From a virus (lineage: Duplodnaviria; Caudoviricetes): a stretch of DNA of 64,000 nt. Below the pieces are notes generated by a model. That model saw nothing but the letters and a program-made list of their open reading frames with translations, ran no database searches and had not been told where the DNA came from. Location: the IMG/VR virus record IMGVR_UViG_3300035670_000009, positions 64,001 to 128,000 of that record, one strand, 5' to 3'. The number at the start of each line of letters is the position of its first letter. Within the stretch, counting starts at the first letter, position 1. The position numbers and the translations under genes were made by a program. Of this stretch, positions 6,925 to 52,702 are shown one piece after another.

Positions 6925-7194
6925 TCATAGTGAGTCATCGCTGCGTTCGCGAATAGACACAAAACGCCCGCCATCTACATCAAACACGATGCCCGGCACG
7001 CCGCCATGCTGCGCGGCCACTGTATTTGCGATTCGCACCAGAGAATCGTAAATCTTTTTGCCGCGCGTATAACCAACAACGGCTACCAGCACACCGTAAG
7101 GGGAAAGACTAAATACGTCGTTTGAGTTGAAATCTCGCGGCGCAACGTCAGCGTGGTCTTCGATATGACCGCCAAAATCAAAATTGTCAGGCAT
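6925..7194 (-). CDS. hypothetical protein
   Basis: 89-aa ORF overlapping the hldE stop, same strand. Confidence 0.55.
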   Translation of the reverse strand: MPDNFDFGGHIEDHADVAPRDFNSNDVFSLSPYGVLVAVVGYTRGKKIYDSLVRIANTVAAQHGGVPGIVFDVDGGRFVSIRERSDDSL

Positions 7195-8704
7195 GTTTCA
7201 GTTTCTCGAGAATCTGCGTGGTGCTCACGTTGTCCACCATGGGACAACGCCAAATTCGGCCTGGAGGGTCGCGATTTATCATCTCTTCAAGGCCGATGAT
7301 TTCCTCCTCTTTGTACTGCGCGCCTTTGACCAATACGTCTGGGACAAACGCGTCGATCATGCCACGCAGCGCAGGTTGTGCGACAAAATCTTCTTCTTCG
7401 AGCGCAACAACTGCGTCCACGCATCCCAAGCTCGCGAGGACCCGGGAGCGCGTTTCAAAATCCTGCACGGGCCGGTTTGGCCCCTTGAGCAGGCGAACAC
7501 TCATGTCGCTGTTTACAGCCACAATGAGGCGCTTACCTTGTTGTTTTGCCTGTTCGAGCAGCTGCAGATGCCCGCGATGTAAAAGGTCAAAACAACCATT
7601 GGCAAGCACAATCGGCTCATTGATCGTGCGCCACGCAGTAGAAAGAGCCACACCTATAGCAAATGGAACAATCTTCGCTTCCGAAGACGTTTCTACCTGC
7701 TTGGCGTACCGCGCCAGAAACGGCGTGGCTGGGTCCAGCTGCGGATACCCTCGCGCCAGGTATTGCGCTGCCGCAGCGTTACCGGCAGCGATCATCAAAT
7801 GCGCACGCGCTGTATCCGGCGGCGCTTTGACCATTGGCGACAACATCAATTCAGCCACAATTCCGGCAAGAAACGCGTCTCCCGCGCCAACACAGTTGGC
7901 AATCGCGGGGAAACACGATTTTGCCGGTGCCTGATAACTCTTAATCGTCTCGTCCGGTTGGCGCACGGCGTACACAGCACCGTTTCTACCGCCGGTAATA
8001 ATTGCAACCTGCGCCTCGGCAGTCTCGAGCACAGCTTGCACAGTCTCGTGACGATCTGGCGACCAGGTTTTGTCGTTCAGCTCCAGATATTCTTTCGCTT
8101 CCGCGGCGTTCATTTTGACGATGTCGGCGCCCTTGTATGCGTTGAGCAAGGCGGGTTTCGCGCTAACCACCGACAACACGCCATAGTAGCGCGCGGCTTC
8201 GATAATCTTTTGCCCGTAAAACTGGCAATACCCTTTGCCGTAGTCGGCGATAACCAGCGCATTCGCCAACGGAATATGCTGCATATACCGCTCGATGTTG
8301 AAATCGCGCGAAGCGTGTGCAACATACTGATCGGACGTTTCTTCTTCGTCGTAGCGAAATGCGACAATGCCGTGATTATTGACAAACCGCATTTTGGCGG
8401 GCGTAACAAACAGCCCGCTGAATGTCACGTTTTTACAAGACAGGCCAGATTCGTGAAGCAACGCATGCACGGTCTGGCCCGGCGTATCGTCGCCCAGTCG
8501 GCTCATGAGCTTGATTCGCATATTCAGACTGCGCAACAACGCGGCCACCAATCCGGCGCCGCCAAGCGACGCTTGCCGGTCGTCTCCCTTTCCAGTGGCA
8601 ATGACCGCGGCACCTTCAGGATTCGCGTAGCGCGGCCCCGCTTGAATCCAAAGATCAAGCAACAGGTCGCCTAAAACGAGCACTTTCGGTCCGCGGTATC
8701 CCAT
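7187..8704 (-). CDS. hldE: bifunctional heptose-7-phosphate kinase / heptose-1-phosphate adenylyltransferase
   Basis: N-terminal PfkB domain (VLVLGDLLLD, GGAGLVA, GAGDAF); C-terminal cytidylyltransferase-like domain (NGCFDLLHRGH, AVNSDMSVRLLKGPNRP, LVKG, STT). Confidence 0.93.
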   Translation of the reverse strand: MGYRGPKVLVLGDLLLDLWIQAGPRYANPEGAAVIATGKGDDRQASLGGAGLVAALLRSLNMRIKLMSRLGDDTPGQTVHALLHESGLSCKNVTFSGLFVTPAKMRFVNNHGIVAFRYDEEETSDQYVAHASRDFNIERYMQHIPLANALVIADYGKGYCQFYGQKIIEAARYYGVLSVVSAKPALLNAYKGADIVKMNAAEAKEYLELNDKTWSPDRHETVQAVLETAEAQVAIITGGRNGAVYAVRQPDETIKSYQAPAKSCFPAIANCVGAGDAFLAGIVAELMLSPMVKAPPDTARAHLMIAAGNAAAAQYLARGYPQLDPATPFLARYAKQVETSSEAKIVPFAIGVALSTAWRTINEPIVLANGCFDLLHRGHLQLLEQAKQQGKRLIVAVNSDMSVRLLKGPNRPVQDFETRSRVLASLGCVDAVVALEEEDFVAQPALRGMIDAFVPDVLVKGAQYKEEEIIGLEEMINRDPPGRIWRCPMVDNVSTTQILEKLKHA

Positions 8705-9846
8705 CAGAGCACAATCAGCCCGACGGCTGTCTCCGGGAGCGGGAAAAGATAAACGCCAAGCGGACTAAACTGCCTGGGCGTATCAAGCCGCATCACCACG
8801 TTTTCATTGGCGTCGCGCAGTTGGGCGGTCACGTAAGGACCCGTCTTGGAAGTGCGAGCGTCCAGCGTAACGGAATATGGACTTCCGTCAACACTAAGCG
8901 TGACCGAAACTGAGTTGCCAGCGGGGTAGTTGCCAGGTCGATCGAAAACATCCTGGATCGCCGAGATGTGATTCTGCCGATACATTTCGAACAGCACAGG
9001 TTTCGTAAAACGCCCAAAGCGCGCGTCATACAACTGCTCCATTTCGGCGCCAGCGCCCCAGCATGCGGGTGCGTAGACCCTTGCTGCGGCCATTAGATAC
9101 GGCGGCACGTTAACGTAGTCCTCGGGCTGCGCCTTGGCCAGCAAAAACGTCTGCTCGGGGAGACAGACAAACTCGCCGGTCTCCGTGAGAATTTTCATCT
9201 CGCCGCTGTCCGTAGAAGGCAGCGCGATCGCTCCCAGCTGCGGCCCCATACCCGCGCCGTCAGGATATTCGCTCTGCCAATCGAGCAGCTCCGTAACGGG
9301 GCTGCCGTGCGGCGAAAACTTGGCCGGAGAGAAGACCGCCTGCAGGTGCGTGTTCTGCACCAGCGCCGGAGCTTTCTTGCCGGGCGTTGGCAGAGGTTGG
9401 GGCGCAGGGGCAGTCGTGACGGGCCACTGCGTCGGCTCAGCTGCCTGCACAGCAGCCTCGGCCACAAGCTGGTTAAACAGATCCTGGCTGGAGACTTCGG
9501 GCTCGAGCTGCACCACGTTCACAAACTGACGCAGCGCCTCCAGGATAATGGCGTCCCGACGATCAGGCGGAGTGTTCGCATACTCAAAGATATCTTTGAG
9601 CGCGTCGCTGCGAGTCGCCCGTGTCAGCGAAAAATTCAGGCCCGAGAAATCAAAACGGGCCAGCTGCTCAGCCGCTGTGACCAGTTTCGCTCGCGCCATC
9701 AGCGGTTGTTTGGCTTCGCTGCCTGCCAGCCGAAGAACCTCTAGCAATGCTGCAGCGAGCATCAGGCGGTGGCTGTCCTTAGACTTGGGCGCCGCCACCA
9801 TAAGAAAATCATCCAAAACGTTACTTGCGACGCATTCGTCGGACAT
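8704..9846 (-). CDS. hypothetical protein
   Basis: Start re-assigned to MSDECV at 9846; its stop overlaps the hldE start. Confidence 0.65.
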   Translation of the reverse strand: MSDECVASNVLDDFLMVAAPKSKDSHRLMLAAALLEVLRLAGSEAKQPLMARAKLVTAAEQLARFDFSGLNFSLTRATRSDALKDIFEYANTPPDRRDAIILEALRQFVNVVQLEPEVSSQDLFNQLVAEAAVQAAEPTQWPVTTAPAPQPLPTPGKKAPALVQNTHLQAVFSPAKFSPHGSPVTELLDWQSEYPDGAGMGPQLGAIALPSTDSGEMKILTETGEFVCLPEQTFLLAKAQPEDYVNVPPYLMAAARVYAPACWGAGAEMEQLYDARFGRFTKPVLFEMYRQNHISAIQDVFDRPGNYPAGNSVSVTLSVDGSPYSVTLDARTSKTGPYVTAQLRDANENVVMRLDTPRQFSPLGVYLFPLPETAVGLIVL

Positions 9847-10960
9847 CGTCTGCAGTCCCATCGTAAACGGCATCACAGGCAGACAATAAAGCGGGGAAGG
9901 TGTGCCGATACTCCCTGCCGATCGTAATTTGAATCGCCTCGTCGCTTGGTAGCGACCGATCAGTCTGGTACGCAGCCAGCACGTTGTTGAAAAGCCGAGT
10001 GCTTTGCGCGCCGTCATCGGCGGCGATAAATATGCCGCCAGGCGAGCCCGCCATCTGCCGAACCTCTGCGGCAAAAACCAGCATGTCGACGTAACTAGCT
10101 GCGCCCAGCGCGGCCCCCAACGTCGCGGCGTGCGTGGCGGGAAACAAATGGTGCATGCTGTCTCCCAATGTCAAATGAACCGTAGCGGGCCGCTGTAATT
10201 CGTATGCGCGAGCGAGCACGCTCGCCGACCGATTGGACGAGAGCGGAAAGCTCCAACGCCCCAGCGCCTCGCCGTAACCCATGCCGCTCGCGGCCGCGCG
10301 AAGCGCCGCGACATTAAGCGGCGCGAGCTCGCGAAGCCGGTCGTCGTGTGAAGAACGACCGCCTAAAATGGCGCGCTCAAAGTCCCGCATTGCCGCAGCG
10401 CTGGAGAGCGCCACGCCGGTGATATAGCCCTTTTCAAGCATTGTGTTGACGAGGGGCCCGACGTTTTCGGCAATAACCGCGTGCCCCAGAAAAAGCACGA
10501 CGGGCTTGTTGGCACTTCGTGCCGCGTGAATCAACCGCGCGCGCGCAATGTCGTCTTTGCCGGGCGGCACGTCGGCAATAGTCGGAATTGGCGCCGCGCG
10601 AGGCAGCGCGTATTGCACCTGAAACGTGTCAAGGTGCTGGTGCGAGCTGACGATGTCGGTTGCCAGCGTCAACGGCGGAGCAGCCGCCGGATCTTCTGCT
10701 GGCTGCATGGGCCCAGTACCGCAAAACAACCACTCGGCCCGCGCAAAACCCAGCTTCACAACGCGCAGCAGAACGGGCATCCCAAAAGAATGCTCGCCAG
10801 CCAACGCGTCACGAAAACGATATTTTTGCACCCCGACGCGTTTGCCGAATGCTGAAATGTTGCCGCCAAACGCGAACTCACACAAGTAATTCATCCGCAG
10901 TCGAATCGCGTTTGTCCCCTCCAGCTTGTTCGGGCGATAAGGTGCTCGACGCCTCACCAT
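9821..10960 (-). CDS. Cro/CI-type HTH fused to a deoxyhypusine-synthase-like (DHS-like) domain
   Basis: N-terminal 'GGNISAFGKRVGV..AEWLFCGTGPM' resembles a repressor HTH. C-terminal 'PVVLFLGHAVI..GYITGVA..DFERA..MGYGEALG..SVLARAYELQRPATVHLTLGDSMHH' resembles an uncharacterised DHS-like family. Confidence 0.6.
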   Translation of the reverse strand: MVRRRAPYRPNKLEGTNAIRLRMNYLCEFAFGGNISAFGKRVGVQKYRFRDALAGEHSFGMPVLLRVVKLGFARAEWLFCGTGPMQPAEDPAAAPPLTLATDIVSSHQHLDTFQVQYALPRAAPIPTIADVPPGKDDIARARLIHAARSANKPVVLFLGHAVIAENVGPLVNTMLEKGYITGVALSSAAAMRDFERAILGGRSSHDDRLRELAPLNVAALRAAASGMGYGEALGRWSFPLSSNRSASVLARAYELQRPATVHLTLGDSMHHLFPATHAATLGAALGAASYVDMLVFAAEVRQMAGSPGGIFIAADDGAQSTRLFNNVLAAYQTDRSLPSDEAIQITIGREYRHTFPALLSACDAVYDGTADDVRRMRRK

Positions 10961-11918: not shown

Positions 11919-11936
11919 ACAGCCTCCTTGCTATTT

Positions 11937-12340: not shown

Positions 12341-12847
12341 CTAGTCGGCCGCGGCTTGGCCGCCGTCGTGGTTGTGCGGGCCAGATTCTTGGTTTTGCTG
12401 CTCATCTTCGAGTCCTTCTTTTGATGCAAGCTCTGCCTGTCGCGCTGTAATTCGTTCCTGAATCAACGTCACGCCAGTTTCAATACTCGAAACTTCGACG
12501 TACGGCAGAATTTCACACAGGTGCTTGAATTTTGACGCACCTACTGCGGCGACGTTGATTTCGCCTGGTTCTTGATTGGAAAACTCTGCCATGTTAGCGA
12601 TCGCAAACGCTACGGCCTTGTCAGTGAACACCAGAATTTTGTTGTCTTTGTCCGAGAAGAAACTGGTGCCGCGGGCGTTAGTTATGACCCACCGCGCGGC
12701 TTCCTCACCGTCGTCGATATAGCCGACAGATCGAACATGGGCCGCCGGAGCTGCGCCAGCTGAGCAGCACTTTTTAAACTTCAAACCGCTGCCACACGGA
12801 CAGCGTTCATTGCGGCGGGGAATGTCGAATCGTCTGCGAATGGTCAT
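12341..12847 (-). CDS. SEC-C motif protein
   Basis: N-terminal RNERCPCGSGLKFKKCC. Confidence 0.85.
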   Translation of the reverse strand: MTIRRRFDIPRRNERCPCGSGLKFKKCCSAGAAPAAHVRSVGYIDDGEEAARWVITNARGTSFFSDKDNKILVFTDKAVAFAIANMAEFSNQEPGEINVAAVGASKFKHLCEILPYVEVSSIETGVTLIQERITARQAELASKEGLEDEQQNQESGPHNHDGGQAAAD

Positions 12848-13835: not shown

Positions 13836-14780
13836 TCAAGACAATCTGCTGTGTCCCCAGTATTTCTCGATGCCTTTGGACAGCGACAAGAATTCTTTGG
13901 TGTACCCTGCTGCTCGCAGTCGAGTTAGGCTAGCTTGCGTGCGAAACTGATACTGGTTGCGAAGTTCTTTTGGCATCGGAATCCAAGCGCACTCAGCGCC
14001 GAATTTGTTGCGCTGCTGCACTGAAATAGCGTTGAAGGCCAACTCATCGAATAAATCGTAAAACGATTGCGCCTGACCAGTTCCAACGTTGTAGATCCCC
14101 GAGGGCGCCTCTTTCAGTGCCCACAGGACGACTTGTACAACGTCGTCGATATAGACAAAATCCCGAAAGATATCTTTGCTCCCTGCGAAAAGCGTTGGTT
14201 TTTCGCCGTTGTTTACTTGCTGGATCAAGTGGTACGCCACGCTGGCTAGCCGACCTTTGTGTTCTTCGCCTGGACCGTACACATTAAAGTACCGCAGGCC
14301 GACCACTCTGTTGACCGCCTGTGTCAATCGACCGCGGACGTACTCGTCAAACGCCCACTTCGAGATAGCGTAAGGCGTTGTCGGGTGTTCGTATTCAGGC
14401 GATTCGATGCACTGGGGTCTACCAGGACCATAAACCGCAGCGCTCGAAGCGTAGATCAGCGGACAATTTGACGCCTGCGCCAGGTCGAACAGATCCACCG
14501 AAAAACTGTAATTGGCCAGCATGATGTTGCGACCGTTTGACTCGGTGGTGTCCGAGTTTGCGCCCTGGTGAATAATCGCACTAAGCTCGGCTTCGCGCGT
14601 TTTACCTTTTCCCAGGTCGCGATAGTCGCAATAGTAGTAAAACTTACTACCGGCGAGGTTTTGCATCTTGCGCCCATCGGTCAAATCGTCGACGCAAATA
14701 ATGTCGTCGCGACCTTGATCGTTGAGGGCCTTCAAGATATTTGAGCCAATAAAGCCAGCAGCTCCGGTGAGTAGGATCAT
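13836..14780 (-). CDS. hldD: ADP-L-glycero-D-manno-heptose 6-epimerase
   Basis: MILLTGAAGFIGSNILKALN..DDLTDGRK, HQGANSDTTE, YASSAAVYG, YAISK, LRYFNVYGPGEEHKGRLASV, RDFVYIDDV. Confidence 0.93.
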   Translation of the reverse strand: MILLTGAAGFIGSNILKALNDQGRDDIICVDDLTDGRKMQNLAGSKFYYYCDYRDLGKGKTREAELSAIIHQGANSDTTESNGRNIMLANYSFSVDLFDLAQASNCPLIYASSAAVYGPGRPQCIESPEYEHPTTPYAISKWAFDEYVRGRLTQAVNRVVGLRYFNVYGPGEEHKGRLASVAYHLIQQVNNGEKPTLFAGSKDIFRDFVYIDDVVQVVLWALKEAPSGIYNVGTGQAQSFYDLFDELAFNAISVQQRNKFGAECAWIPMPKELRNQYQFRTQASLTRLRAAGYTKEFLSLSKGIEKYWGHSRLS

Positions 14781-20049: not shown

Positions 20050-20811
20050 TTATTTCTGCGCCATCACACTGTCAATCCATTCTCGAATATCTGCGTCACT
20101 AAGACGCGTGTGCCAGGATTCGTGCCCGTAGCGGCTGATGTTAGTTTCGCCGCGACCGTGCACCACGCTGGAATGGATCCCGCAAAGTTCATTGCCGATA
20201 AAAAGGCCGCCGCCACTATCGCCCGGGCCGATCAAGAATTCGAGACTTGTGCGCTTTCCTTTTGACACTGAGCACACTAGTTTGCCGCCTGCTGCGGCGT
20301 CAACAATGTTGCTGCCTGCGCGTTTGTGGCCGTCGCTAATCGTTGCGCCGGTCGAAAACGTGCCGGTGATACCGTACCCCGCGATGCTCACAACCTTACC
20401 GGCTTCGTCGTTTTTTGAATAGAGTGGCGGATAGAAATCGAGCTGAATTTCTCGAACCGAGCGGCCGACTGCAACATCCGTCGTTTTGAGCGCATCTTCG
20501 CCAAAAGACGGATGCGCGGCCATGGCAGCAAGCGGAAAGCTTTCTCCGGTATCCAGCTTGATTTCAAATTCGTCGCATTCGCCAACGGCGTGGGCGGCGG
20601 TGAGTACGTAGTGGGGCGCGATAATCACGCAAGACGCAATATGCTGCAATTTGCTTTCTTTGCGGCAAATAATGCGCGCAACGCAACGAAATTTGGCCCC
20701 GTATTCCAGATGTTTGTGATCGGGAACGTTAGGATCGCGCGTTCCGCCGTAAGCGGTCGTGGCTGTTAATGCACAGCTGAGCGTTGCCAAGCACAGTAGG
20801 CGAGCAAACAT
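20050..20811 (-). CDS. secreted trypsin-like serine protease (S1)
   Basis: Signal peptide; catalytic motifs LTAAH, DVAV and GDSGGG. Confidence 0.88.
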   Translation of the reverse strand: MFARLLCLATLSCALTATTAYGGTRDPNVPDHKHLEYGAKFRCVARIICRKESKLQHIASCVIIAPHYVLTAAHAVGECDEFEIKLDTGESFPLAAMAAHPSFGEDALKTTDVAVGRSVREIQLDFYPPLYSKNDEAGKVVSIAGYGITGTFSTGATISDGHKRAGSNIVDAAAGGKLVCSVSKGKRTSLEFLIGPGDSGGGLFIGNELCGIHSSVVHGRGETNISRYGHESWHTRLSDADIREWIDSVMAQK

Positions 20812-43563: not shown

Positions 43564-43866
43564 TCAAAACGTGAGCTGCACGACATCCCCGCCGGGCCGC
43601 TGAAACGTTACACGCACCTTTTGCGCGTTGAGTAACTGTTTAAGAGCGAGTTTCTTTTCGGCGCTGAGTGCGCCTAGACAGCTTTTGATGCGCGCCATTT
43701 CTTCGCGTTGTTTTTGTTGTCTCTTTCGAGCGCACGCGCCACAACCGCCAGCGCCGTTTTTGAACAACTCAGCTTTGTTCATCAGGCAAGGAATCGTATC
43801 AGCAAACCGCGCATCTTGAATCATCGTCAGGATGGTGCTGTCCTCGATAGTCACCAGCGGTGTCAT
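43564..43866 (-). CDS. hypothetical protein (CGAC motif)
   Basis: 100 aa; coupled (TAATG) to the upstream ORF. Confidence 0.65.
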   Translation of the reverse strand: MTPLVTIEDSTILTMIQDARFADTIPCLMNKAELFKNGAGGCGACARKRQQKQREEMARIKSCLGALSAEKKLALKQLLNAQKVRVTFQRPGGDVVQLTF

Positions 43867-44408
43867 TACAGCATCTCCGAAGATGAGCTATCTGGAACGG
43901 GCGCGCCGCCAATCCACACCTCGCCGCCTGGCAGCAACGTGTCCATCAAGTCGAGCGTGTTCTTGAGGCTGTTCACGTCGTCGGTGACGTCTTGAATAAA
44001 CCGCTTCGCCTCAGATCGACTGCGCAGATGCACGTCGACGTAATTCAAGCGAAACCATTCGGGGCGCTGCCCTGCAATCGGCTCGTCTTCGGGATACTCA
44101 GACAGATCAGTCGGCGAACAGACGTGAGAAAACGCGCCCTCGCGTTCACCGGCGGCGGGTTTCATGGGAAGCAGCAAGTAGGCGAACACTTTGTCGGGCA
44201 TCAACTCCGCGTCGGTTGCTTCAATGCGCACGCGGACGCCGTCAGTGTTTTGGTAGTTGTAGCGGCTGACAGACCAACTCAGTTTGACGCGCCTCCCGGA
44301 CTCGGTCGGCGGCGAGACAGGCGTGTCAGGGGCATAAAAATTAATGCCTAGCGCCTCGTTTAACTCAATGACGCCGCCGTATGAGGAAGAAACGTTACAG
44401 TCACTCAT
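43866..44408 (-). CDS. hypothetical protein, possibly structural
   Basis: Start re-assigned to MSDCNV. Confidence 0.65.
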   Translation of the reverse strand: MSDCNVSSSYGGVIELNEALGINFYAPDTPVSPPTESGRRVKLSWSVSRYNYQNTDGVRVRIEATDAELMPDKVFAYLLLPMKPAAGEREGAFSHVCSPTDLSEYPEDEPIAGQRPEWFRLNYVDVHLRSRSEAKRFIQDVTDDVNSLKNTLDLMDTLLPGGEVWIGGAPVPDSSSSEML

Positions 44409-44433
44409 GCTGCCCTCCTGGCAACGCACACGT

Positions 44434-44730
44434 TTAAAGCGGCTCGGAAGAACCCGAGTCTTCGATGGGCATCACCGCGCCGCTAATTTGAACAGGCCCG
44501 GGCGTGGTGGCCCGCACATAACCGAACGCTAAGCCTTTGACGTCAGTGGGCCCCGGTTGTTCGATATCCACGCCGTTACGGTCTGCCATAAGTTCTACGT
44601 ATCGCCCGGACACCGGACGGCCCCGAGAGTCGCGGAGCCGCACCTTGACCACGACCGCGGCCGAACCATCCGCAACTGCTTGATGTTCGCCGCCAAAAAG
44701 CAGCTTGGACTGCGCAGGGTCTGGCGTCAT
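44434..44730 (-). CDS. Ig-like (Big_1/invasin-type) domain protein
   Basis: ADG..VVVKVRLRDSRGRPVSG..TDVKGLA..VRATTPG. Confidence 0.7.
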   Translation of the reverse strand: MTPDPAQSKLLFGGEHQAVADGSAAVVVKVRLRDSRGRPVSGRYVELMADRNGVDIEQPGPTDVKGLAFGYVRATTPGPVQISGAVMPIEDSGSSEPL

Positions 44731-45083
44731 GGAAACTTGACCTTTAGCAGCGGAATCGTCGACGTCTTGCGATAGTATAACGTAATTGCCTTGATTTTTG
44801 GGTCGTTACGTTTTTGGCGTAGATAGTCAATTAACGCCGCGAGCCCGGCAGGATTTTCGGTCCGCATTGTTTCCATCAAGGCAAGCGTGGCGTCAATACA
44901 GTCAAATACAAGGTGCGCACTGCCTCCGCACCGGCAAGTACTTTTGGCGGCGTTTTCCAGATATGCGGCTTTGCATTGCGCGACCTGTTCTTCGACGGGC
45001 GCAAACGCTGAGTTAGCGTTGAAAAACTCAGCGTCGAAAAGCATTTTCACAAAGTCGTCGCGCGTCATGATGACCACGCTCAT
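44727..45083 (-). CDS. hypothetical protein
   Basis: Start re-assigned to MSVVIM (ATGA overlap with the GT9 stop). Confidence 0.6.
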   Translation of the reverse strand: MSVVIMTRDDFVKMLFDAEFFNANSAFAPVEEQVAQCKAAYLENAAKSTCRCGGSAHLVFDCIDATLALMETMRTENPAGLAALIDYLRQKRNDPKIKAITLYYRKTSTIPLLKVKFP

Positions 45084-46987
45084 CGGCCGCCTCCCGTGGC
45101 CGCTTGCCAGGCCGGAGTTCCAAAATGCGGCTGACTCACGCCGCGGCGGACGACGCTCGAGGTGTGAATGTATTGCTTCGAACGATTCCAACCTACGATG
45201 TCGTATCCAGCCTGATAGAGCTGTTCGCCAATTGTGTAGTCGCCGCCATTGTGCGTGAGCGCTGCGTCTGGAATGTCCGCTGCGCGCATTGCCGCTGTTT
45301 TTAGGCAGAAGAACCCGCCCGCTACGAACACCGCGTGATCGCCGTTGGGAGCGGGCTTTTTGTTTTTCATGCGGAACGGTCGCCCCTGGTACCAGGGTCG
45401 CGAACGATAAAGCTGCTGTTGCGCCGTTGACAGACGAATTGTCATGTCGGCGCCAAATAGCCCCGCTTCAGGATTGGCGAGAATGGCCTGCGCCAGGAGC
45501 GTGAGCCATTGCTGGTTCCGGTCTGCAATCGAATCATCGTCGAACCATATTAGGTAGTTCGTTTCAATCGGCAGCGCTGTGTCGTGGAACATTTCCCGCA
45601 TTACCGGATACTTCAGGGCGTTTTCCCTGTGCCGGTAGTGCTTGCTGACAACCCCGTGGTCGACAAGGCGATCGAGTACGGCCGCCGTTTCGTCGCACAG
45701 TTCATTAGAACCGACGCGCAGGTCGATGCGACCAGGCGGGCATGTGGAAACAATCGAGTTCAGGCAACGCATGTGCAGCGAGTGGTATTGCGCGGGCCCG
45801 TAAAACAACACGCAGACCGTGAACTTGCCGCCTATCACCGGATCTCGATAGATATCTTTGTCCGGCGCTGCCGTCGGAATAGCGGTATTTGGCGTTCCCG
45901 GATCAGCGCGCTCGAATCGGGCGGCCGGGGCTAGTACAGGCGCGGCGACCTGCGAAACAGTACTCCCCGCGTCTGATAAACGGTACCGTACGATCTCGTC
46001 GAGCGGCTTAATGGGCGGCAGCGTCCGGTCTTCGTAATAGCTCATCACAGCCTCGACAACGTGCTGGGGGGTGATCATGTCCAGGCATTTTGGAACCGCC
46101 TGGCCCGGCTTCACGATAGGGTACTTGCAAAGCGACGAATCGCCGTTCAGCGGCAATACCTTGTTTTTCCAGCAGCCGTGGGCCTGGCAGCAGTCCAGCA
46201 GCCCGATCGTGTGTAGATAACGGTGCGGCACCGTTAGCCGCTGGGCCGTCTCAGGGCCTCCCAGACCGGCGTTTTCGCGGACATAGGCCTCCCACCACCA
46301 GGCCTCCCTGCCGCCCGCCAGAACGACGCAGGGGCGCTGTAACGCCGCGGCCAGGTGCATCGCTGCCGTGACGCCGCAAATGACCCCGTCAGCGTGGTAA
46401 ATCAGCCGAAGCCAGTCCCGCAGCCCCGTACGGCCGACCAGGTTTAGCGCCCCGGCGATTTCGGGGTGCCAGTGTCCGCGCTCCGTGCCGCCGATCTGGA
46501 CGCACGGGACGCCCAGGGCGCTTAACGCGCTAATCGTCTCCTGCCACGCCGCCTGGCCCCAGACCTTGGCGGTGAAGTCCGACTTACCTCCGGACAGAAA
46601 CACCCAGTAGCGGCCCTCTACGAGCCGCCGGGATCGTTCCTCTTCCGACAGGTGCAGGTCTGGGTAAGGCAAGGTGAGCGGGATTCGCACGCGAGCCTGG
46701 ACCTCGAAATCCCTGTGAAAATAGGCAAGGAAATGCACCGTTTCGTGGTTCTGGTCGCGAAGGCCTTTGCCGTAGGTGAGCTTGATGTGCTCGACCCCCT
46801 TTTGGCCGCGTAGCTCACGCGCGCTGACGATGTAGGGATTGTTCTCCCACAGCGCGGCGGCGTTCGTGTCGACGCCGATTTGAAATGCGCCGGGGTGCGT
46901 CAGCGCAATGTCGCGCACCAAAGCGGTGAGCACTGCCGTATCGCCCGGCGCTCGTTTGTGCACGAGAATGAGGCGGCGAGCCTGCAC
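45080..46987 (-). CDS. GT9 (ADP-heptose heptosyltransferase-like) domain fused to a GT2-like domain
   Basis: N-terminal RAPGD..AKVW..VQIGG..NLVGRTGLR..ADGVICGVTAAMHLAAALQRPCVVL; C-terminal TVCVLFYG..YLIWFDDDS..FVAGGFF..HNGGD. Confidence 0.82.
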   Translation of the reverse strand: MQARRLILVHKRAPGDTAVLTALVRDIALTHPGAFQIGVDTNAAALWENNPYIVSARELRGQKGVEHIKLTYGKGLRDQNHETVHFLAYFHRDFEVQARVRIPLTLPYPDLHLSEEERSRRLVEGRYWVFLSGGKSDFTAKVWGQAAWQETISALSALGVPCVQIGGTERGHWHPEIAGALNLVGRTGLRDWLRLIYHADGVICGVTAAMHLAAALQRPCVVLAGGREAWWWEAYVRENAGLGGPETAQRLTVPHRYLHTIGLLDCCQAHGCWKNKVLPLNGDSSLCKYPIVKPGQAVPKCLDMITPQHVVEAVMSYYEDRTLPPIKPLDEIVRYRLSDAGSTVSQVAAPVLAPAARFERADPGTPNTAIPTAAPDKDIYRDPVIGGKFTVCVLFYGPAQYHSLHMRCLNSIVSTCPPGRIDLRVGSNELCDETAAVLDRLVDHGVVSKHYRHRENALKYPVMREMFHDTALPIETNYLIWFDDDSIADRNQQWLTLLAQAILANPEAGLFGADMTIRLSTAQQQLYRSRPWYQGRPFRMKNKKPAPNGDHAVFVAGGFFCLKTAAMRAADIPDAALTHNGGDYTIGEQLYQAGYDIVGWNRSKQYIHTSSVVRRGVSQPHFGTPAWQAATGGGR

Positions 46988-46994
46988 GATCGCC

Positions 46995-47531
46995 TCAAGC
47001 CTGCGCGCTGGAATCTACTGCCGCGTGTAGTGCCACGTCGGCTTTGTCGCGAGCGCGCCGCGCGAGCTTAATGGCGCGCTGTACGAGAATTTTCGTCGGC
47101 AGCGCGAGGAAGGGCAGCTTACGTTTTGCTGCCTCTTCTTTCAACCACCCGACGATTTCCTTGATGTTCTGTTCGCACCATTCGATTCCGCGGTCGTTCA
47201 TGAGCCGCGCTCGCGCATTACACGAACAATTTTCCGTGCTTTTTATCCCGACCTTGGCGAGGAGCTTTTTCAGCTGCGTTCCAGCGCCGGTAGGATCCCA
47301 TACATACGGCGCAGGCTGTGCCGGTTTTACCGGCTCTGGCGGGGGCGCTGCCGCATTTTCTGCGCTCGGCTCGGCAGCGCCGCGCGGACAATCTGGAAAC
47401 GCCTGCACCAATTCTGACAATCTGCTGGCCACAGTTTTGGCGACAGCGATTTGTTTGCCGCACTGTGCGCAATAAAAACACGCCATGTCATTTGATATCG
47501 GACATTTTGTTTCTTTAAATGCGCACCGCAT
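46995..47531 (-). CDS. Cys-rich hypothetical protein
   Basis: CFYCAQC and GTQLKKLL..NCSCNARA..WCEQN..IVGWL. Confidence 0.65.
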   Translation of the reverse strand: MRCAFKETKCPISNDMACFYCAQCGKQIAVAKTVASRLSELVQAFPDCPRGAAEPSAENAAAPPPEPVKPAQPAPYVWDPTGAGTQLKKLLAKVGIKSTENCSCNARARLMNDRGIEWCEQNIKEIVGWLKEEAAKRKLPFLALPTKILVQRAIKLARRARDKADVALHAAVDSSAQA

Positions 47532-47559
47532 AGTTGTCTCCAGTTTTAACCGTTAACAA

Positions 47560-48171
47560 TTAGTTGCTAGTTGAAACGTCTGAACTACCGGCAGATTCGT
47601 TAACACCAGACGCTGCGCTATCAGAAGAAGAACTGCTGTAGCCAAAATCGCTAGCCGCCGAGTTGTCGCTCGAAAGACTAGTTGTTGAACTGGCGGTTGA
47701 ACTACTTGTTACTGAGCTACTGTCTGAAAGACTTGTTGCGGAACTGACACCAGAGCTGCCGATCTGCGAACTAGAGCTTGAACTGCTACTGCTCGGCTCC
47801 TCACAGTAGGTGTCCGACGCAATTTCTTCATAATTCACAACAGCTTCAAGTGCGCTGGCGGCATCTGCGCTTAACTCGATGCTGTGGCCTTCCATCAAGT
47901 AAACCGGCGTTTCTTTGGTGATCAGGACCGCTGTCTTGTTTGCGTCAACCGTTGTTGCGAAAGCTAGTCGAAAGGTTTCGGCGCCTCTGCGCACAGTTGC
48001 CGTGACTTCGCGGCCGGTTGAATCGACGTTGGCCACGTAAAGCGAAATGACCCTGACGGTTTTTGCACTATTTGCCGCGTTGCTGACGATTGGCGCGGCA
48101 GTCACACCTAACGCCAACGCAGCGTTTTTGCCCGCAACACACGACGGAGAGCACAGATTTGGGAGCGCCAT
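47560..48171 (-). CDS. putative virion beta-domain protein with Ser-rich tail
   Basis: N-terminal ~115-aa beta-rich domain (ISLYVANVD..LITKETPVYLMEG) followed by a poly-Ser tail. Confidence 0.65.
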   Translation of the reverse strand: MALPNLCSPSCVAGKNAALALGVTAAPIVSNAANSAKTVRVISLYVANVDSTGREVTATVRRGAETFRLAFATTVDANKTAVLITKETPVYLMEGHSIELSADAASALEAVVNYEEIASDTYCEEPSSSSSSSSSQIGSSGVSSATSLSDSSSVTSSSTASSTTSLSSDNSAASDFGYSSSSSDSAASGVNESAGSSDVSTSN

Positions 48172-48173
48172 AA

Positions 48174-50666
48174 TTACAGACTCCAGTGGAACACGCTGTC
48201 ACATAGGTCTATCGAAACTGGACAAATTTGTCCACACCCGCATTCGTCAATTGGCTGTACGCCGTCGCTGGCGCTCGGCAAAGAACTGTTAGACGTTTGA
48301 CTGCCAGAGCTAGGCTGCGCGCTGCTGGAGCTGGACTGTTGGTTGCTTGAGTCGGACTGCTCACTGCCAGAGCTAGGCTGCGCGCTGCCAGAGCTAGGCT
48401 GCGCGCTGCTGGAACCGGACTGTTGGTTGCTGGAACTGGGCTGTGTGCTGCTGGAACTGGGCTGCTCGCTGCTGGAACTGAGCTGTGTGCTGCTGGAACC
48501 GGACTGTTGGTTGCTGGAACTGGGCTGTGTGCTGCTGGAACTGGGCTGCTCGCTGCTGGAACTGAGCTGTGTGCTGCTGGAACCGGACTGTTGGTTGCTG
48601 GAACTGGGCTGTGTGCTGCCAGACGACTGACCACTAGAGACAGTGCGACTGCCAGAAGATCCGTTACATAAATTAACAGTAATCTGGCCATTGCATTCTT
48701 CGTCTACGTTGCCCTCGCAATCAACCGCCGTACCGCAAAAATCAAACACGTATTCGCACGCTGGCGCTGTTTCAGTTGTAAGCCCATATAGCGCAAGCAG
48801 CGTTTCGGTGCTAAGCGTAAAAGTCTGTGGATTTGGATCGTTTTCTTTGACGTCAAAATTCAATACAGACAAACCGTTTGCATTGAAATCCCAATTTATG
48901 CGTGATCGTTCCCCGGCCGCATTATCTGCAACAAGTACGGTTAACGTTGCTGTGTCGCCGGGACCAAACGAGTTCAAAAATTGCCCGTTTGAGTTGACGC
49001 CAAATGCGATTTGATTTGGTTCTGCGCTGCAACTACTAGAGCTGCTTGAATCGCTTGACGCACTGGAGTCACTTGATGTGCTTGACGCGCTGGAGTTACT
49101 TGACGTGCTTGAAACGCTAGAGTCGCCACTACTGCTAGCGCACGGCGGACAAGGGTCATTTTCGTTGCGATATTCTGTTACATATGCGGTTTCAAATACT
49201 CCGGTTTCACAATCAAACAATTTTGCTGTGACTGTATTTAGCGTGCCGTCGTCGCAATAATCGCGTATATCGTAAGCGCACAAACGCGACGGCTCGCCGG
49301 GAGAGCCCGCATTAATGAAATTTATCTGACGTATTACTTCTTTGCCGCAAATAGTCTCACAAAGCGTTCCAGCAATGCCGTCAGTGCAATTTGTTGGGTT
49401 ATCTTCTTCAGACCACACCGGGCATTCGCAAGAAGAGCTACTACTGCTTGACGATTCGCGGCTGCTGCTTACAGCGCTTGATTGACTTGAGCTATAGTCA
49501 GAGCTTTTTTCTTCTGAGCTTTTTTCAGTACTCGATTTTTCGCTCGAATCCGAACTGGATTGGTCGCTAGATCCCGAACTGGATTGGTCGCTAGACCCCG
49601 AACTGGATTGGTCGCTAGATCCCGAACTGGATTGATCGCTAGATCCCGAACTGGATTGATTGCTTGAGCCTGAACTTGTGTCGCTTGAACTTTCTGGCGG
49701 ACACGGTACTTCTACTTTTGGTAGTGCTCTAAACGCGCACGCTTGAGAATCGTAATAGAACGGCTGTACGCTTTTTAATGCCGGGCCGTTTGCCGTGCAT
49801 GTTGAGCACCATTCGTAAACTGTGTACGAGGCTACGCAACCAGCTGTAGAGTCGGAAAAACCGCTTCCCCGGCGTAGTGGCACAACAAAGCCGCAAACAA
49901 AACCAAGTTCATCTTGGCTTGCGTCACTAACGGCGCTTGTACAGTCGCAACCGCTGCTACTGCTCGTGCCACTTGACTGGCCGGAGCCGCTGCTTCCGCT
50001 GCCATCAGGACACGACCCAAAAATCAGCTCGATTGGTGTCCACGAGCACGTTGCGGGGTCAAACGTGTAAGACACTAAACCATATTGACTACCATCAGCG
50101 CAAAGCAAAGGTTCGCCAGGCGGTGCGGGCGGGGGTGGAAAACAATTGCAGGCTTGCCCGCACTCTTCTAGTGTTGCGCCCGGCGCTTCTTTTCCGACGC
50201 ACTGGCCGTCTACGCAATCGTAGCCGCCGGGCTCGACGCAATTTCCGTCAACTAAAATTGTCCCTGGCGGGCAATAGCAGTTGCAGTTTTGTGGCGCGCG
50301 TAATTGATTTCCAGGACACGGCTCATCTGGACACACGCAATTGCAATCTTCGTCTAGCGTTTTTCCTTCAGGACATTCGTTCGGACAAACGCAATTGCAT
50401 TCTTCGTCGTGTTCTTTTCCTTCGGGGCACTCGTCCGCGCAAACGCAGTTGCACTCAGCGTCGTGCGATTTGCCGTCAGGGCACGGTTCGCCCGGACAAA
50501 TACACTCGCACTCTGCTGTCAGTGTGCGCGGCTCAGCGCACGCATCTGCGTCTGGGCAGGTGCATTCTGGGCTGTCCGGATCCAGTTCGCCGCAGGCGCA
50601 CTGACACGCGCGCGCCGTTGGCGAACACGCAAAACCGGCACAATCATTGACGAAACGACACGGCAT
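48174..50666 (-). CDS. Cys-rich (CXCXC repeat) and Ser-rich repeat protein, probably virion-surface
   Basis: 830 aa; repeats such as CECICPGEPCPDGK/CNCVCPNECPEGK; SSGSSDQ and SSxQP tracts. Confidence 0.75.
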   Translation of the reverse strand: MPCRFVNDCAGFACSPTARACQCACGELDPDSPECTCPDADACAEPRTLTAECECICPGEPCPDGKSHDAECNCVCADECPEGKEHDEECNCVCPNECPEGKTLDEDCNCVCPDEPCPGNQLRAPQNCNCYCPPGTILVDGNCVEPGGYDCVDGQCVGKEAPGATLEECGQACNCFPPPPAPPGEPLLCADGSQYGLVSYTFDPATCSWTPIELIFGSCPDGSGSSGSGQSSGTSSSSGCDCTSAVSDASQDELGFVCGFVVPLRRGSGFSDSTAGCVASYTVYEWCSTCTANGPALKSVQPFYYDSQACAFRALPKVEVPCPPESSSDTSSGSSNQSSSGSSDQSSSGSSDQSSSGSSDQSSSGSSDQSSSDSSEKSSTEKSSEEKSSDYSSSQSSAVSSSRESSSSSSSSCECPVWSEEDNPTNCTDGIAGTLCETICGKEVIRQINFINAGSPGEPSRLCAYDIRDYCDDGTLNTVTAKLFDCETGVFETAYVTEYRNENDPCPPCASSSGDSSVSSTSSNSSASSTSSDSSASSDSSSSSSCSAEPNQIAFGVNSNGQFLNSFGPGDTATLTVLVADNAAGERSRINWDFNANGLSVLNFDVKENDPNPQTFTLSTETLLALYGLTTETAPACEYVFDFCGTAVDCEGNVDEECNGQITVNLCNGSSGSRTVSSGQSSGSTQPSSSNQQSGSSSTQLSSSSEQPSSSSTQPSSSNQQSGSSSTQLSSSSEQPSSSSTQPSSSNQQSGSSSAQPSSGSAQPSSGSEQSDSSNQQSSSSSAQPSSGSQTSNSSLPSASDGVQPIDECGCGQICPVSIDLCDSVFHWSL
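48300..48625. repeat. coding tandem repeats (21-bp subunits in an ~81-bp higher-order unit)
   Basis: gctgctggaaccggactgttggttgctggaactgggctgtgt... repeated; encodes SSNQQSGSSSTQLSSSSEQP. Confidence 0.85.
49545..49665. repeat. 24-bp coding tandem repeat
   Basis: cccgaactggattggtcgctagat, about 5 copies; encodes SSGSSDQS. Confidence 0.85.
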
Positions 50667-50698
50667 AGTATCACGATCGCGGCAGTGCGTTATTTACG

Positions 50699-52702
50699 TT
50701 AATTGTCACAAATGTAGATCGGCGGCGTTTCGTTAGTTGGCGCGGCGGTCATCGCAAACACGCAACCGCCATTAGAGCAAATTTGACCCGACGGACAACC
50801 AGGTACGGGGCTGGTGCAGTTCGGATCGTTTGCTGTGTCGCAATGGTAGCAGTCGGAACGAATCTGCGGACAGCATCTGCTAGCGCCGACGTCGCCCGCG
50901 CCCGGAAGTGGAATAGTATTGTTTGGGCAACAGTAAAAATCGCCGGTACCGTTACCAACGGCACCGGCATAACCATAACCTGCCGGGCAGCCAGGGCTAG
51001 GCACGCCACTGTTTAGGTCATATGTAACAATAATAGCGCCAGTCGTCGGTATGCATTCTCCGTCAAGACAACACAACGTGTCACAATCAAGACCAGTAAT
51101 GCAACCAGCGCTGCCCGAAGAAGAGCTATCCGAACTGTCTGACGACGACGAAGAAGAGCACGGTTCGCATTCGCCGTTGTTGCAGCATTCTCCGTCTTTA
51201 CAACATGTATCTCCACACACTTGTTCTTCGGGGCAGCACACCCAACCACCCGGCGGTGCGCTGCTCGACGGCGTTGAACTACTCGGCACAGAACTGCTGG
51301 GCGTAGAACTACTTGGCGCAGAGCTGCTAGATGTAGAGCTGTCTGAAGAACTATCAGAGCTGTCTGACGACGAAGAAGAAGAGCACGGCCCGCATTCGCC
51401 GTCATTGCAACATTCACCTTCTTTGCAGCAGGTGTCGCCGCACACTTGTTCTTCGGGGCAGCACACCCAACCGCCCGGCGGCGCGCTGCTCGACGGCGCA
51501 GAACTGCTAGGTACCGAACTGCTAGGTACCGAACTGCTGGGTACCGAACTGCTGGGTGCAGAACTGCTAGGTACCGAACTGCTGGGTGCAGAACTGCTAG
51601 GTACCGAACTGCTAGGTACCGAACTGCTAGGTACCGAACTGCTGGGTACCGAACTGCTGGGTGCAGAACTGCTAGGTACCGAACTGCTGGGTACCGAACT
51701 GCTGGGTGCAGAACTGCTAGGTACCGAACTGCTAGGTACCGAACTGCTGGGTGCAGAGCTACTTGGCGCAGAACTGCTGGGTGCAGAACTGCTGGGTGCA
51801 GAGCTACTTGGCGCAGAGCTACTTGGTGTCGAGCTGCTGGGTGTCGAGCTACTTTGGTCTGAGCTGCTTGCGATCGAGCTGCTGGGTACCGAACTGCTGG
51901 GTGCAGAGCTGCTGGGTGTCGAGCTACTTTGGTCTGAGCTGCTTGCGATCGAGCTGCTGGGTACCGAACTGCTGGGTGCAGAGCTGCTGGGTGTCGAGCT
52001 ACTTTGGTCTGAGCTGCTTGCGATCGAGCTGCTGGGTACCGAACTGCTGGGTGCAGAGCTACTTGGTGTCGAGCTGCTGGGTGTCGAGCTACTTTGGTCT
52101 GAGCTGCTGGGAGTTGAACTGCTTTCGTCTGAACTGCTAACGGAACTGCTAAGTCCTGAACTGCTAACGGAACTGCTAAGTCCTGAACTGCTAGATTCCA
52201 CGCTGCTTGACAAAGAGCTGCTGGAATCCAGGCTGCTAGACAAAGAACTGCTAGATTCCACGCTGCTTGAAATGGAGCTGCTGGAGTCCGAGCTGCTTGA
52301 AATGGAGCTGCTGGAGTCCGAGCTGCTTGAAATGGAGCTGCTGGATTCCGAACTGCTGGATTCTGAACTACTCGAAATAGAGCTGCTGGAGTCCGAGCTG
52401 CTTGAAATGGAGCTGCTGGATTCTGAACTGCTGGAGTCCGAGCTGCTTGAAATGGAGCTGCTGGATTCTGAACTGCTGGATTCTGAACTACTCGAAATAG
52501 AGCTGCTGGATTCTGAACTACTCGAAATAGAGCTGCTGGAGTCCGAGCTGCTTGAAATGGAGCTGCTGGATTCCGAACTGCTGGATTCTGAACTACTCGA
52601 AATAGAGCTGCTGGAAGACGATGACGAACAACAACAGGCTGCGCTGATTGCGAGACTGCCAGCAAACGCTAAAAGCTTATTGTTGTACGTGTAAAGAGGC
52701 AT
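50699..52702 (-). CDS. mucin-like Ser-rich repeat protein with Cys-rich modules
   Basis: 667 aa; pentapeptides SSSIS/SSSES and SSSAP/SSSVP; duplicated GGWVCCPEEQVCGDTCCK module. Confidence 0.75.
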   Translation of the reverse strand: MPLYTYNNKLLAFAGSLAISAACCCSSSSSSSSISSSSESSSSESSSSISSSSDSSSSISSSSESSSSISSSSESSSSESSSSISSSSDSSSSESSSSISSSSDSSSSISSSSESSSSESSSSISSSSDSSSSISSSSDSSSSISSSVESSSSLSSSLDSSSSLSSSVESSSSGLSSSVSSSGLSSSVSSSDESSSTPSSSDQSSSTPSSSTPSSSAPSSSVPSSSIASSSDQSSSTPSSSAPSSSVPSSSIASSSDQSSSTPSSSAPSSSVPSSSIASSSDQSSSTPSSSTPSSSAPSSSAPSSSAPSSSAPSSSAPSSSVPSSSVPSSSAPSSSVPSSSVPSSSAPSSSVPSSSVPSSSVPSSSVPSSSAPSSSVPSSSAPSSSVPSSSVPSSSVPSSSAPSSSAPPGGWVCCPEEQVCGDTCCKEGECCNDGECGPCSSSSSSDSSDSSSDSSTSSSSAPSSSTPSSSVPSSSTPSSSAPPGGWVCCPEEQVCGDTCCKDGECCNNGECEPCSSSSSSDSSDSSSSGSAGCITGLDCDTLCCLDGECIPTTGAIIVTYDLNSGVPSPGCPAGYGYAGAVGNGTGDFYCCPNNTIPLPGAGDVGASRCCPQIRSDCYHCDTANDPNCTSPVPGCPSGQICSNGGCVFAMTAAPTNETPPIYICDN
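51480..52620. repeat. 15-bp coding tandem repeats
   Basis: gaactgctgggtacc/gaactgctgggtgca arrays (51480-52120) and ga(a/g)ctgctgga.tcc/gagctgcttgaaatg arrays (52250-52620). Confidence 0.9.

Follow-up and report, generated by a model that had tools for sequence, protein, structure and literature searches.

What use might a bacteriophage have for enzymes that make activated heptose, and for a putative heptosyltransferase encoded beside serine-rich proteins at the end of its tail-fibre region? The question is raised by a 64,000-nucleotide stretch of DNA (the window; coordinates are those of the window unless marked as genome coordinates) corresponding to bases 64001-128000 of the 203,910-bp IMG/VR virus record IMGVR_UViG_3300035670_000009, which has direct terminal repeats and is rated as complete by CheckV. 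The GC content is 52-61% and the minus strand holds almost all genes. A preliminary description of the window, made from its letters alone, had pointed to hldE, hldD, a GT9-GT2 glycosyltransferase fusion and three Ser-rich genes as the possible makings of a heptosylated virion coat; all of these open reading frames (ORFs) are present on the minus strand, at the positions cited below. The source is an uncultured, widespread aquatic/subsurface jumbo phage: DNA near-identical to 45080-48200 was met in subsurface, marine, freshwater and aquatic metagenomes of at least four studies (67-100% of sampled words), and, judging from these copies, the phage, or its fibre/glycosyltransferase (GT) module alone, is widespread geographically. 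The answer that we favour, drawing on sequence, structure prediction and synteny, is that the fusion may be a late fibre-module glycosyltransferase that O-heptosylates the phage's own fibre proteins, a reading to which we would give slightly less than an even chance.

The fusion protein (635 aa, 45080-46987) consists of two domains. The first (residues 1-325; 46013-46987, minus strand) matches the Pfam family of GT9 enzymes (PF01075, 45.6 bits against a cut-off of 22, residues 103-228), and an AlphaFold2 (AF2) model of residues 1-345, built on a 54-sequence alignment with a predicted local distance difference test score (pLDDT) of 95.2, shows the GT-B fold of heptosyltransferases. The strong structural neighbours of this model are solely GT9 proteins, i.e. 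3tov from Veillonella (Z 24.1), WaaF (1psw, Z 22.4), TibC (4rap, Z 21.0) and WaaC (2h1f, Z 19.8), the next GT-B proteins reaching Z <=10.9 at best; all solved close neighbours with a known donor use ADP-heptose. PnsB1, a non-enzymatic subunit of the chloroplast NAD(P)H dehydrogenase (NDH) complex, also uses a GT9-like fold (Z 18.1 to the model), but the conservation of catalytic residues argues for the phage fusion being an active enzyme. The pair G15-D16 is nearly invariant among the homologues and K141 is invariant, and these positions align to the G-D motif of WaaF and to K192 of WaaC. The catalytic Asp, which acts as the base, and the donor-phosphate Lys are D13 and K192 in WaaC and D110 and K230 in TibC (PMC4358343). 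From the fold family and from the co-occurrence with HldE described below, we infer that the GT9 domain transfers heptose from ADP-heptose.

Within this fold family, two features set the phage domain apart from the enzymes of the lipopolysaccharide (LPS) core. First, about 140 residues precede its donor-binding Lys (K141). A comparable length is found in TibC, where Lys230 follows a 97-residue barrel and an N-lobe spanning residues 98-195, whereas in WaaC the Lys is at position 192 and the larger N-lobe binds Kdo2-lipid A (PMC4358343); the N-lobe of the phage domain is about 50 residues shorter than those of WaaC and WaaF. Second, about 60 residues are inserted in the C-lobe behind the last Rossmann strand, among them five near-invariant cysteines (266, 267, 272, 287 and 301; window 46087-46191) in the spacing C(C)-x4-C-x14-C-x13-C, and the aligned segments of WaaC and WaaF have no Cys cluster. 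TibC possesses an iron finger of the pattern C-x2-C-x15-C-x11-C (residues 339, 342, 358 and 370) that is needed for oligomerisation and substrate recognition (PMC4358343), and the five-Cys insertion is thus a candidate metal finger resembling it. The model superimposes on TibC over 267 residues with a root-mean-square deviation of 3.0 (model 1-324 onto chain 93-391). The short N-lobe and the five-Cys insertion therefore recall the protein heptosyltransferase TibC, although by sequence profile the domain is closer to WaaF and WaaC. The statement of the preliminary description that serine O-heptosylation of AIDA-I and TibA is carried out by a different enzyme family is misleading in this respect, TibC being one of the three closest structural neighbours of the phage domain.

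The second domain (residues 375-635; 45083-45865, minus strand) was modelled separately (AF2, pLDDT 92.9) and adopts a GT-A fold, with Foldseek TMq values up to 0.61; it is about equally near to GT2 enzymes, collagen galactosyltransferase and polypeptide GalNAc-transferases (E ~1e-8 to 1e-7). Its D-D-D motif (FDDDS) is invariant, its Atlas language-model neighbours are GT2 clusters (0.98), and nine of 15 homologues match the Pfam GT2 family at E <= 0.1 (best 4.5e-4), the window copy itself staying below threshold (15.7 versus 23.3 bits). The earlier label "GT9-GT2 fusion" was thus right in substance, given the above-threshold PF01075 match, the GT9-only neighbours and the GT-A fold with GT2-like matches.

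A protein search with the GT9 domain retrieved 593 homologues at E <= 1e-3, many of them on contigs of 180-230 kb, and the relatives considered here are encoded on 192 IMG/VR stretches, from which 80 loci were kept, 58 of them non-redundant (loci and genomes are cited by our labels, beginning with L and G). When the fusion was compared by tblastn with 50,697 deposited phage records, nothing matched. In nearly all loci with a visible upstream region, the GT9 gene has a hypervariable fibre region on its upstream side and the same two small genes downstream, and it keeps this place at the distal end of the fibre module as identity falls to about 35%; L022 and L024, the most distant loci, have the GT9 domain only in common. 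The GT9 gene belongs, in other words, to the core genes of a large uncultured jumbo-phage family, in which it closes the fibre module. In most close relatives the GT-A half is joined to it; L012 and L019 encode this half in an ORF of its own next to GT9, and L013, L014, L022 and L024 lack it.

In the present phage the fusion follows three consecutive Ser-rich genes on the same strand, with one small gene between, an arrangement that the preliminary description had reported and that proved to be real and tightly packed: gaps between the genes from 55627 down to 46987 measure 2-36 nt, and the layout looks like one operon. The first of the three, P0001 (50699-52702, minus strand), is a mucin-like protein of 667 aa with 46% Ser and Cys-rich modules; P0002 (48174-50666, minus strand; 830 aa, 22% Ser, 8% Cys) has several Ser-rich tracts; and P0003 (47560-48171, minus strand; 203 aa, 25% Ser) combines a 125-aa phage domain with a 75-aa Ser-rich C-terminal tail. 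Long Ser/Thr (S/T) tracts were found in three of the 237 ORFs of the genome, which are exactly these three, all beside the glycosyltransferase. The tracts are encoded with all six Ser codons and are therefore not simple triplet expansions, serine having been selected at the protein level. Homologues of the P0003 core are 118-119 aa long, end in ...YEE[IV]S and have no tail; among close variants of P0003 the tails differ in sequence and keep the same S/T-rich composition. In L122 a tailless P0003 homologue stands directly before a protein with fn3 and LamG domains, and the records of 33 relatives contain no homologue of the core. Positional homologues of P0001 and P0002 with common termini occur in L003, L005 and L021; the P0002 homologues, in the same position, start with M-[PG]-C-R-x-V-N-C, and the P0001 homologue of L003 has its N-terminus in common with P0001, as well as the motif T-x-Y-[IL]-C-[DN]-[DN] at the C-terminus.

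The latter motif deserves a separate remark. In four genomes (window 50640-50730; L003:7860-7920; L005:6950-7000; L021:6120-6170) the protein encoded before the P0002-family gene has T-x-Y-[IL]-C-[DN]-[DN] as its C-terminus; apart from this ending the proteins are unrelated (Ser-rich, Cys-rich or a 235-aa enzyme-like protein), and the P0002-family gene starts 3-32 nt further on. This boundary may mark a junction between modules that is conserved, or the motif may serve in docking. In composition, the fibre and Ser-rich genes (47560-55627) differ from the glycosyltransferase gene (45080-46987), with a GC content at third codon positions (GC3) of 0.51-0.53 versus 0.72. They are also full of near-identical tandem DNA repeats (periods of 15-282 bp), as would be expected if they had been expanded, recombined or acquired recently.

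Upstream of P0001 lies P0005 (52739-55627, minus strand), a 962-aa Cys/Pro repeat protein that represents the tail-fibre gene conserved in the family; its body of beta-repeats ends in a run of eight Gly. The N-terminus, FDP-x-KC ... PPPIFDC, is kept family-wide and the body is swapped (L001, L005, L014, L017, L019, L021 and L043-L120); the homologues contain collagen-like Gly-X-Y repeats in 17 of 41 non-redundant loci, with runs of G-P-T in L001 and L005 and of G-P-Q, G-Y-Q or G-F-T in others. A conserved N-terminus combined with collagen-like homologues is the signature by which P0005 is predicted to be a tail fibre. The six conserved genes that precede it (55631-63406, minus strand) are presumed to encode baseplate or tail proteins, as they are syntenic in relatives down to 25-40% identity. 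Scans of these six genes with Pfam and PHROG matched no family; the "baseplate/tail block" that was said to precede the Ser-rich genes is thus confirmed in part, by a tail sheath gene about 17 kb upstream on the same strand (genome 145131-147965) and by the adjoining fibre gene P0005.

The genes for the putative donor pathway lie elsewhere in the window. The hldE-like gene (7187-8704, minus strand) encodes a 505-aa protein expected to act as heptose-7-phosphate kinase and heptose-1-phosphate adenylyltransferase. Its best family is NF008454 (212 bits, residues 3-504), the best domain matches of its two halves are to the heptose kinase and adenylyltransferase models (TIGR02199, 142 bits; TIGR02198, 112 bits), Pfam recognizes PfkB and CTP_transf_like domains, and the motifs GAGD, HxGH and VSTT are all kept. 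It thus appears to be a divergent, motif-intact bifunctional enzyme, whose substrate specificity is best called probable because the score is below the 521-bit equivalog cut-off. The product of hldD (13836-14780, minus strand; 314 aa) scores 336.6 bits with TIGR02197, against a cut-off of 274.6, and has the GxxGxxG and YxxxK motifs of short-chain dehydrogenases/reductases (SDR), which mark it as a bona fide ADP-glyceromanno-heptose 6-epimerase. The preliminary description had noted that gmhA and gmhB are absent from the window and left the rest of the genome to be searched: neither gmhA (TIGR00441, SIS_2, SIS) nor gmhB (TIGR00213, HAD-IIIA) was detected in the complete 203,910-bp genome, with positive search controls. 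The phage therefore covers the kinase, adenylyltransferase and epimerase steps only, and its "own" heptose donor is its own in part, GmhA and GmhB having to come from the host.

A 456-aa ORF (8704-10074) is translationally coupled to hldE, and its position is kept in relatives; it was not counted as a pathway enzyme, being low-complexity and matching no family. More generally, HldE-like genes always have upstream of them, overlapping or abutting, a gene for a 360-450-aa low-complexity, partly highly acidic protein (window; L026-L031), and this partner persists even where HldE identity is 26-32%.

Of the 31 large genomes with GT9, 15 carry an HldE-like gene, and so do nine of the 18 that are at least 90% complete. 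All of these genes have their best match to HldE models, with 221-325 bits in the protein scan and up to 361 in the genome search; the orthologues of G005 and G002 are 67% and 46% identical to the window copy and the others are more distant. By comparison, HldE matches occur in 50 of the 50,697 deposited phage records (~0.1% versus ~50% in the GT9 family, a contrast not corrected for shared ancestry). HldD above the cut-off is restricted to the subclade of the present phage: among the relatives it occurs in G002 and G005, the nearest complete or nearly complete relatives of the window, which makes three genomes in all. As for the expectation that hld and Ser-rich genes should occur together in relatives, all four large genomes with S/T tracts beside GT9 (G000, G005, G023 and G031) have an HldE-like gene, versus about half overall, which amounts to a weak yes on small numbers that are not phylogenetically independent, with hldD confined to those three genomes.

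Further glycan genes are scattered over the genome. A GT4 gene (genome 27626-28774) has a homologue directly upstream of GT9 in L013; there is a weaker GT4-like gene (genome 32698-33738) and a paralogue of the GT-A domain (genome 43502-44269). Outside the window, at genome 4839-8341 (L032:4839-8341), a Methyltransf_24 enzyme, a collagen-repeat protein (PF01391, 67 bits), a sulfotransferase-like protein and a nucleoside diphosphate (NDP)-sugar epimerase/dehydratase are encoded in a row. In the distant locus L024, the genes on either side of that for a 702-aa poly-Ser protein encode a sulfotransferase, two methyltransferases, GT9 and a tailspike-like protein, the methyltransferase and sulfotransferase families being the same as in the genome 4839-8341 cluster. 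Glycan-building and tailoring enzymes interleaved with fibre genes are a recurrent theme of these phages.

Put together, these observations suggest the following scenario. The fusion would be expressed late, as the last gene of the tail-fibre operon, and would work in the cytoplasm, either ahead of tail assembly or in the course of it. The GT9 domain would move heptose from ADP-heptose to Ser/Thr hydroxyls of extended repetitive segments of the distal fibres; in the present phage these would be the Ser tail added to P0003 and the poly-Ser stretches in P0001 and P0002. The fused GT-A domain would attach a second sugar; other phage glycosyltransferases, the methyltransferase and the sulfotransferase-like enzyme may elaborate the glycan. 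HldE (kinase and adenylyltransferase) and HldD (D,D to L,D epimerisation) would raise the donor supply, with the host providing GmhA (sedoheptulose-7-phosphate isomerase) and GmhB (7-phosphatase). Given this dependence, the host should be a heptose-making bacterium, probably Gram-negative. A scan of genome contigs with HldD for host inference gave a single match of 26% identity, which pointed to no host. One 177-kb relative, L099 (IMGVR_UViG_3300036768_001863), is classed as a provirus by IMG/VR, and its flanks could name a host if the class is right.

This scenario best fits the fixed position of the GT9 gene in the fibre module, its TibC-like architecture and the glycan toolkit beside fibre genes, as well as the limitation of mucin-like tracts to GT-adjacent genes and the Ser tail of P0003, which is appended and conserved in composition. 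The presence of HldE-like genes in about half of the family and in all four large genomes with S/T tracts is in line with the proposed donor link. The donor sugar of the GT9 domain, a protein as its acceptor, the membership of the Ser-rich proteins in the virion and the feeding of the fusion by hldE and hldD are the steps that we infer. The heptosylated mucin-like fibres of the preliminary description are retained as far as the parts list, the fibre-operon glycosyltransferase, the GT9 features of a protein-directed type and the toolkit are concerned; given up is poly-Ser as a general acceptor. A wider version, in which a whole jumbo-phage family would use a core TibC-like metal-finger heptosyltransferase to O-heptosylate its own poly-Ser, Ser/Thr-rich or collagen-like fibres, many members contributing HldE and few HldD, is conceivable but on the whole doubtful.

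A number of observations weigh against our interpretation. The Asp of the D-[TS]-G motif of WaaC and WaaF is replaced in the phage domain, where the motif aligns to V206-T207-A208 (family consensus G-V-T); this Asp (Asp261 in WaaC) contacts the heptose, and with Val in its place the donor sugar and the way in which the sugar is held are uncertain. Searched against Protein Data Bank (PDB) sequences, the family profile finds WaaF (4.7e-8) and WaaC (9e-4) over the donor-binding C-lobe and does not reach TibC at E <= 10; no NCBIfam model of a bacterial autotransporter heptosyltransferase (BAHT) scored at E <= 1e-3 for the fusion; and the N-terminal beta-barrel of TibC (its residues 1-97) is absent, the phage chain beginning with the catalytic domain. 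The genes hldE and hldD are 31-38 kb away from the glycosyltransferase gene, among unrelated genes, and about half of the near-complete relatives have no hldE. That P0001-P0003 are parts of the virion is plausible from their position, and their many cysteines would suit an oxidising compartment.

The S/T tracts themselves fall on the same side. Of the 41 non-redundant loci, five have them within 7 kb upstream of GT9; L001, the closest relative (82% identity), is without them. An apparently strong enrichment near GT9 on a first, redundant set (7/107 versus 1/343, p = 2.4e-4) was no longer significant after de-replication: in a wider de-replicated set the tracts are found in 6/197 versus 4/440 (p = 0.077). 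The co-occurrence of GT9 with Ser-rich genes expected by the preliminary description is thus real in those five loci and does not extend to the family. Since GT9 is conserved far beyond the S/T tracts, its conserved function cannot depend on poly-Ser proteins, and poly-Ser is not a general acceptor. Neither were two other candidates for a universal acceptor retained. Collagen Gly-X-Thr repeats are S/T-rich in just four of the 17 collagen-bearing fibre genes; and the 187-aa product of a neighbouring gene (43866-44429) has short Ser patches in many homologues, but those of L007 and L008 end without one.

The alternative that survives best is that the fusion acts on a host glycolipid, the LPS inner core or another surface glycan, with HldE and HldD sustaining the ADP-heptose pool. 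Such envelope remodelling could, e.g., block the adsorption of progeny or competitors to infected cells and debris, and the Ser-rich proteins would be unrelated neighbours. The profile matches to WaaF and WaaC are matches to LPS heptosyltransferases, the automatic name given to the GT9 homologues by the Joint Genome Institute (JGI) is "ADP-heptose:LPS heptosyltransferase", the usual reading of heptose genes in cyanomyophages and metagenomic phages is that they are auxiliary genes connected with LPS, and GT9 is conserved with or without Ser-rich proteins, all of which agrees with this alternative. We nevertheless consider it unlikely, if far from negligible: the shortened N-lobe lacks about 50 residues of the lobe that binds Kdo2-lipid A in WaaC/WaaF, the gene holds a fixed last place in the fibre module across a deep family, unlike a conversion or exclusion moron, and it is fused or adjacent to other glycosyltransferases, beside glycan-tailoring enzymes interleaved with fibre genes.

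A more sceptical view is that the parts are not linked at all. The hld genes would be ordinary auxiliary genes serving host ADP-heptose and LPS or other phage glycosyltransferases, the GT9-fold protein would use another donor, and the adjacency of the Ser-rich genes would merely reflect how common low-complexity linkers are in fibre genes. The distance of 31-38 kb between the hld genes and the glycosyltransferase, the lack of hldE in half and of hldD in nearly all of the near-complete GT9 genomes, the loss of the heptose-contacting Asp and the non-significant S/T enrichment after de-replication can all be read in this way. What makes this view decidedly improbable to us is the roughly 50% carriage of HldE in the family against ~0.1% of deposited phage records (with the same reservation about shared ancestry), along with the use of ADP-heptose by all the solved close structural neighbours whose donor is known.

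It is very unlikely that P0001, and perhaps P0002 and P0003, are instead exported and secreted or lipid-anchored on the infected cell after heptosylation in the cytoplasm, as AIDA-I and TibA are heptosylated. The N-terminus of P0001 (one Lys, a 13-residue hydrophobic run and A-A-C) loosely fits a lipoprotein signal and the Cys-rich modules suit an oxidising compartment, but the proteins in the same position in L021, L005 and L001 start with G-P-C-x-C-C followed by poly-Ser, which is not signal-like, so that the conserved element is a Cys cluster rather than a lipobox; moreover, the genes are inside the fibre operon, and the P0003 core adjoins an fn3/LamG fibre-type gene in another phage. Hardly credible, finally, is a transfer of heptose to hydroxymethylated bases of the phage DNA, for which one could cite the nuclease genes in the neighbourhood of hldE and the reconstitution of heptosyl-5-hydroxymethylcytosine with a phage kinase, nucleotidyltransferase and GT-B enzyme (Pyle et al., bioRxiv 10.1101/2023.12.21.572611), as no thymidylate-synthase-like (ThyA-like) hydroxymethylase was found in the complete genome (a Tet/JBP search also gave no match, though its control failed to match too), the GT9 gene belongs to the fibre module and the encoded domain has its structural neighbours among heptosyltransferases rather than among enzymes of the T4 beta-GT type.

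Directly upstream of the fusion, a gene for a small Cys-containing protein of 178 aa (46995-47531, minus strand) has homologues in the same position in L001, L003, L005 and L021 (53-63% identity); Atlas places the protein in viral hypothetical clusters only, and a weak match to DUF5535 is sub-threshold. Downstream, three small genes follow on the minus strand, encoding 98 aa (44434-44730), 187 aa (43866-44429) and 100 aa (43564-43866). Homologues of the 187-aa and 100-aa genes follow GT9 in most loci, and those of the 98-aa gene were found in L001 and L002 only. No Pfam or PHROG family was matched by 46995-47531 or by the conserved genes downstream of the fusion. Near hldE, a possible further GT-A glycosyltransferase gene (4146-5117, minus strand) has a weak Glyco_tranf_2_4 match (E = 0.0044, 17.9 bits, below the cut-off of 27.5) and no NCBIfam match. 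Between the hld genes and the fibre module are a trypsin-like protease (20050-20811, minus strand), an AAA ATPase (23497-24990, minus strand) and a GpA-type large terminase on the opposite, plus strand (29749-31719), with which a SEC-C-motif protein (12341-12847, minus strand) may be listed; because these genes separate the hld genes from the fibre module, the window is not a single functional block.

To our knowledge, phage virion glycosylation has so far been shown only in mycobacteriophages, and protein O-heptosylation is known only for autotransporter adhesins. The wider version outlined above would, if true, provide the first virion glycosylation known to use heptose and, beyond the autotransporter systems, the first GT9 directed at proteins. 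If the present enzyme heptosylates tail fibres, both phenomena would extend to a large, widespread family of aquatic/subsurface jumbo phages. The "LPS heptose" auxiliary genes of phages would gain a non-LPS function, and sugars coating the receptor-binding fibres could influence host range and stability, as well as the way in which defences or grazers recognise the phage. Should the enzyme act on LPS instead, we would be dealing with an ordinary auxiliary-gene case in an unusual genomic position. In the literature we found no report of GT9 as a conserved gene of a tail-fibre module, fused to GT-A and placed beside mucin-like proteins.

Some elements of the system are familiar. Phage hldE- and hldD-like genes have already been annotated in cyanomyophages and in surveys of auxiliary metabolic genes (AMGs), and this is the known part: cyanomyophages (P-SSM2, S-CAM1 and S-SSM7) and metagenomic phages likewise have genes for HldD-like epimerases and HldE-like kinase/nucleotidyltransferases. 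They differ in that their HldD is at most 37% identical and HldE is covered in part only, and the fusion has no counterpart among the deposited records mentioned above. With WaaC and WaaF the fusion shares the Pfam family, the fold (Z 19.8-22.4), the best profile matches over the donor-binding C-lobe and the G-D and Lys motifs; it departs from them in the N-lobe shorter by about 50 residues, in Val for the D-[TS]-G Asp, in the Cys insertion of about 60 residues and in its place in a tail-fibre operon. Another point of comparison is the glycosylation of fibrils and capsids in Mimivirus and chloroviruses and of BclA-type collagen on Bacillus spores. Here, too, virus-encoded sugar-nucleotide enzymes and several glycosyltransferases stand beside collagen-like or mucin-like fibre genes, including the GPT repeats of L001 and L005, with the differences that the carrier is a bacteriophage, that the pathway is partial and needs host GmhA and GmhB, and that the enzyme families are not the same.

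In mycobacteriophages, structural proteins have glycosylated C-terminal extensions and phage-encoded glycosyltransferases have been proposed to act on Ser/Thr-rich extensions (Freeman et al. 2023, cited in PMC12619734). As far as that citing account goes, the Ser tail added to the 119-aa core of P0003 fits the pattern of appended extensions, whereas the GT families, the sugar (heptose here), the targets (distal fibres here, capsid and tail tube there) and the host, here probably Gram-negative, are different. A last parallel is with the BAHTs, TibC and AAH. The phage fusion has neither their beta-barrel nor a sequence-level match to them nor an autotransporter substrate, and is fused to a GT-A domain. 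Like them, it has a catalytic domain of the GT9 type with a GT-B fold, in which the N-lobe is short, the catalytic Asp comes early and the donor-binding Lys is conserved, and its Cys-rich C-lobe insertion, with five conserved Cys, has a spacing like that of the four-Cys iron finger of TibC. BAHTs work in the cytoplasm and O-heptosylate Ser in repetitive proteins, which is the mechanism that we propose for the phage fusion.

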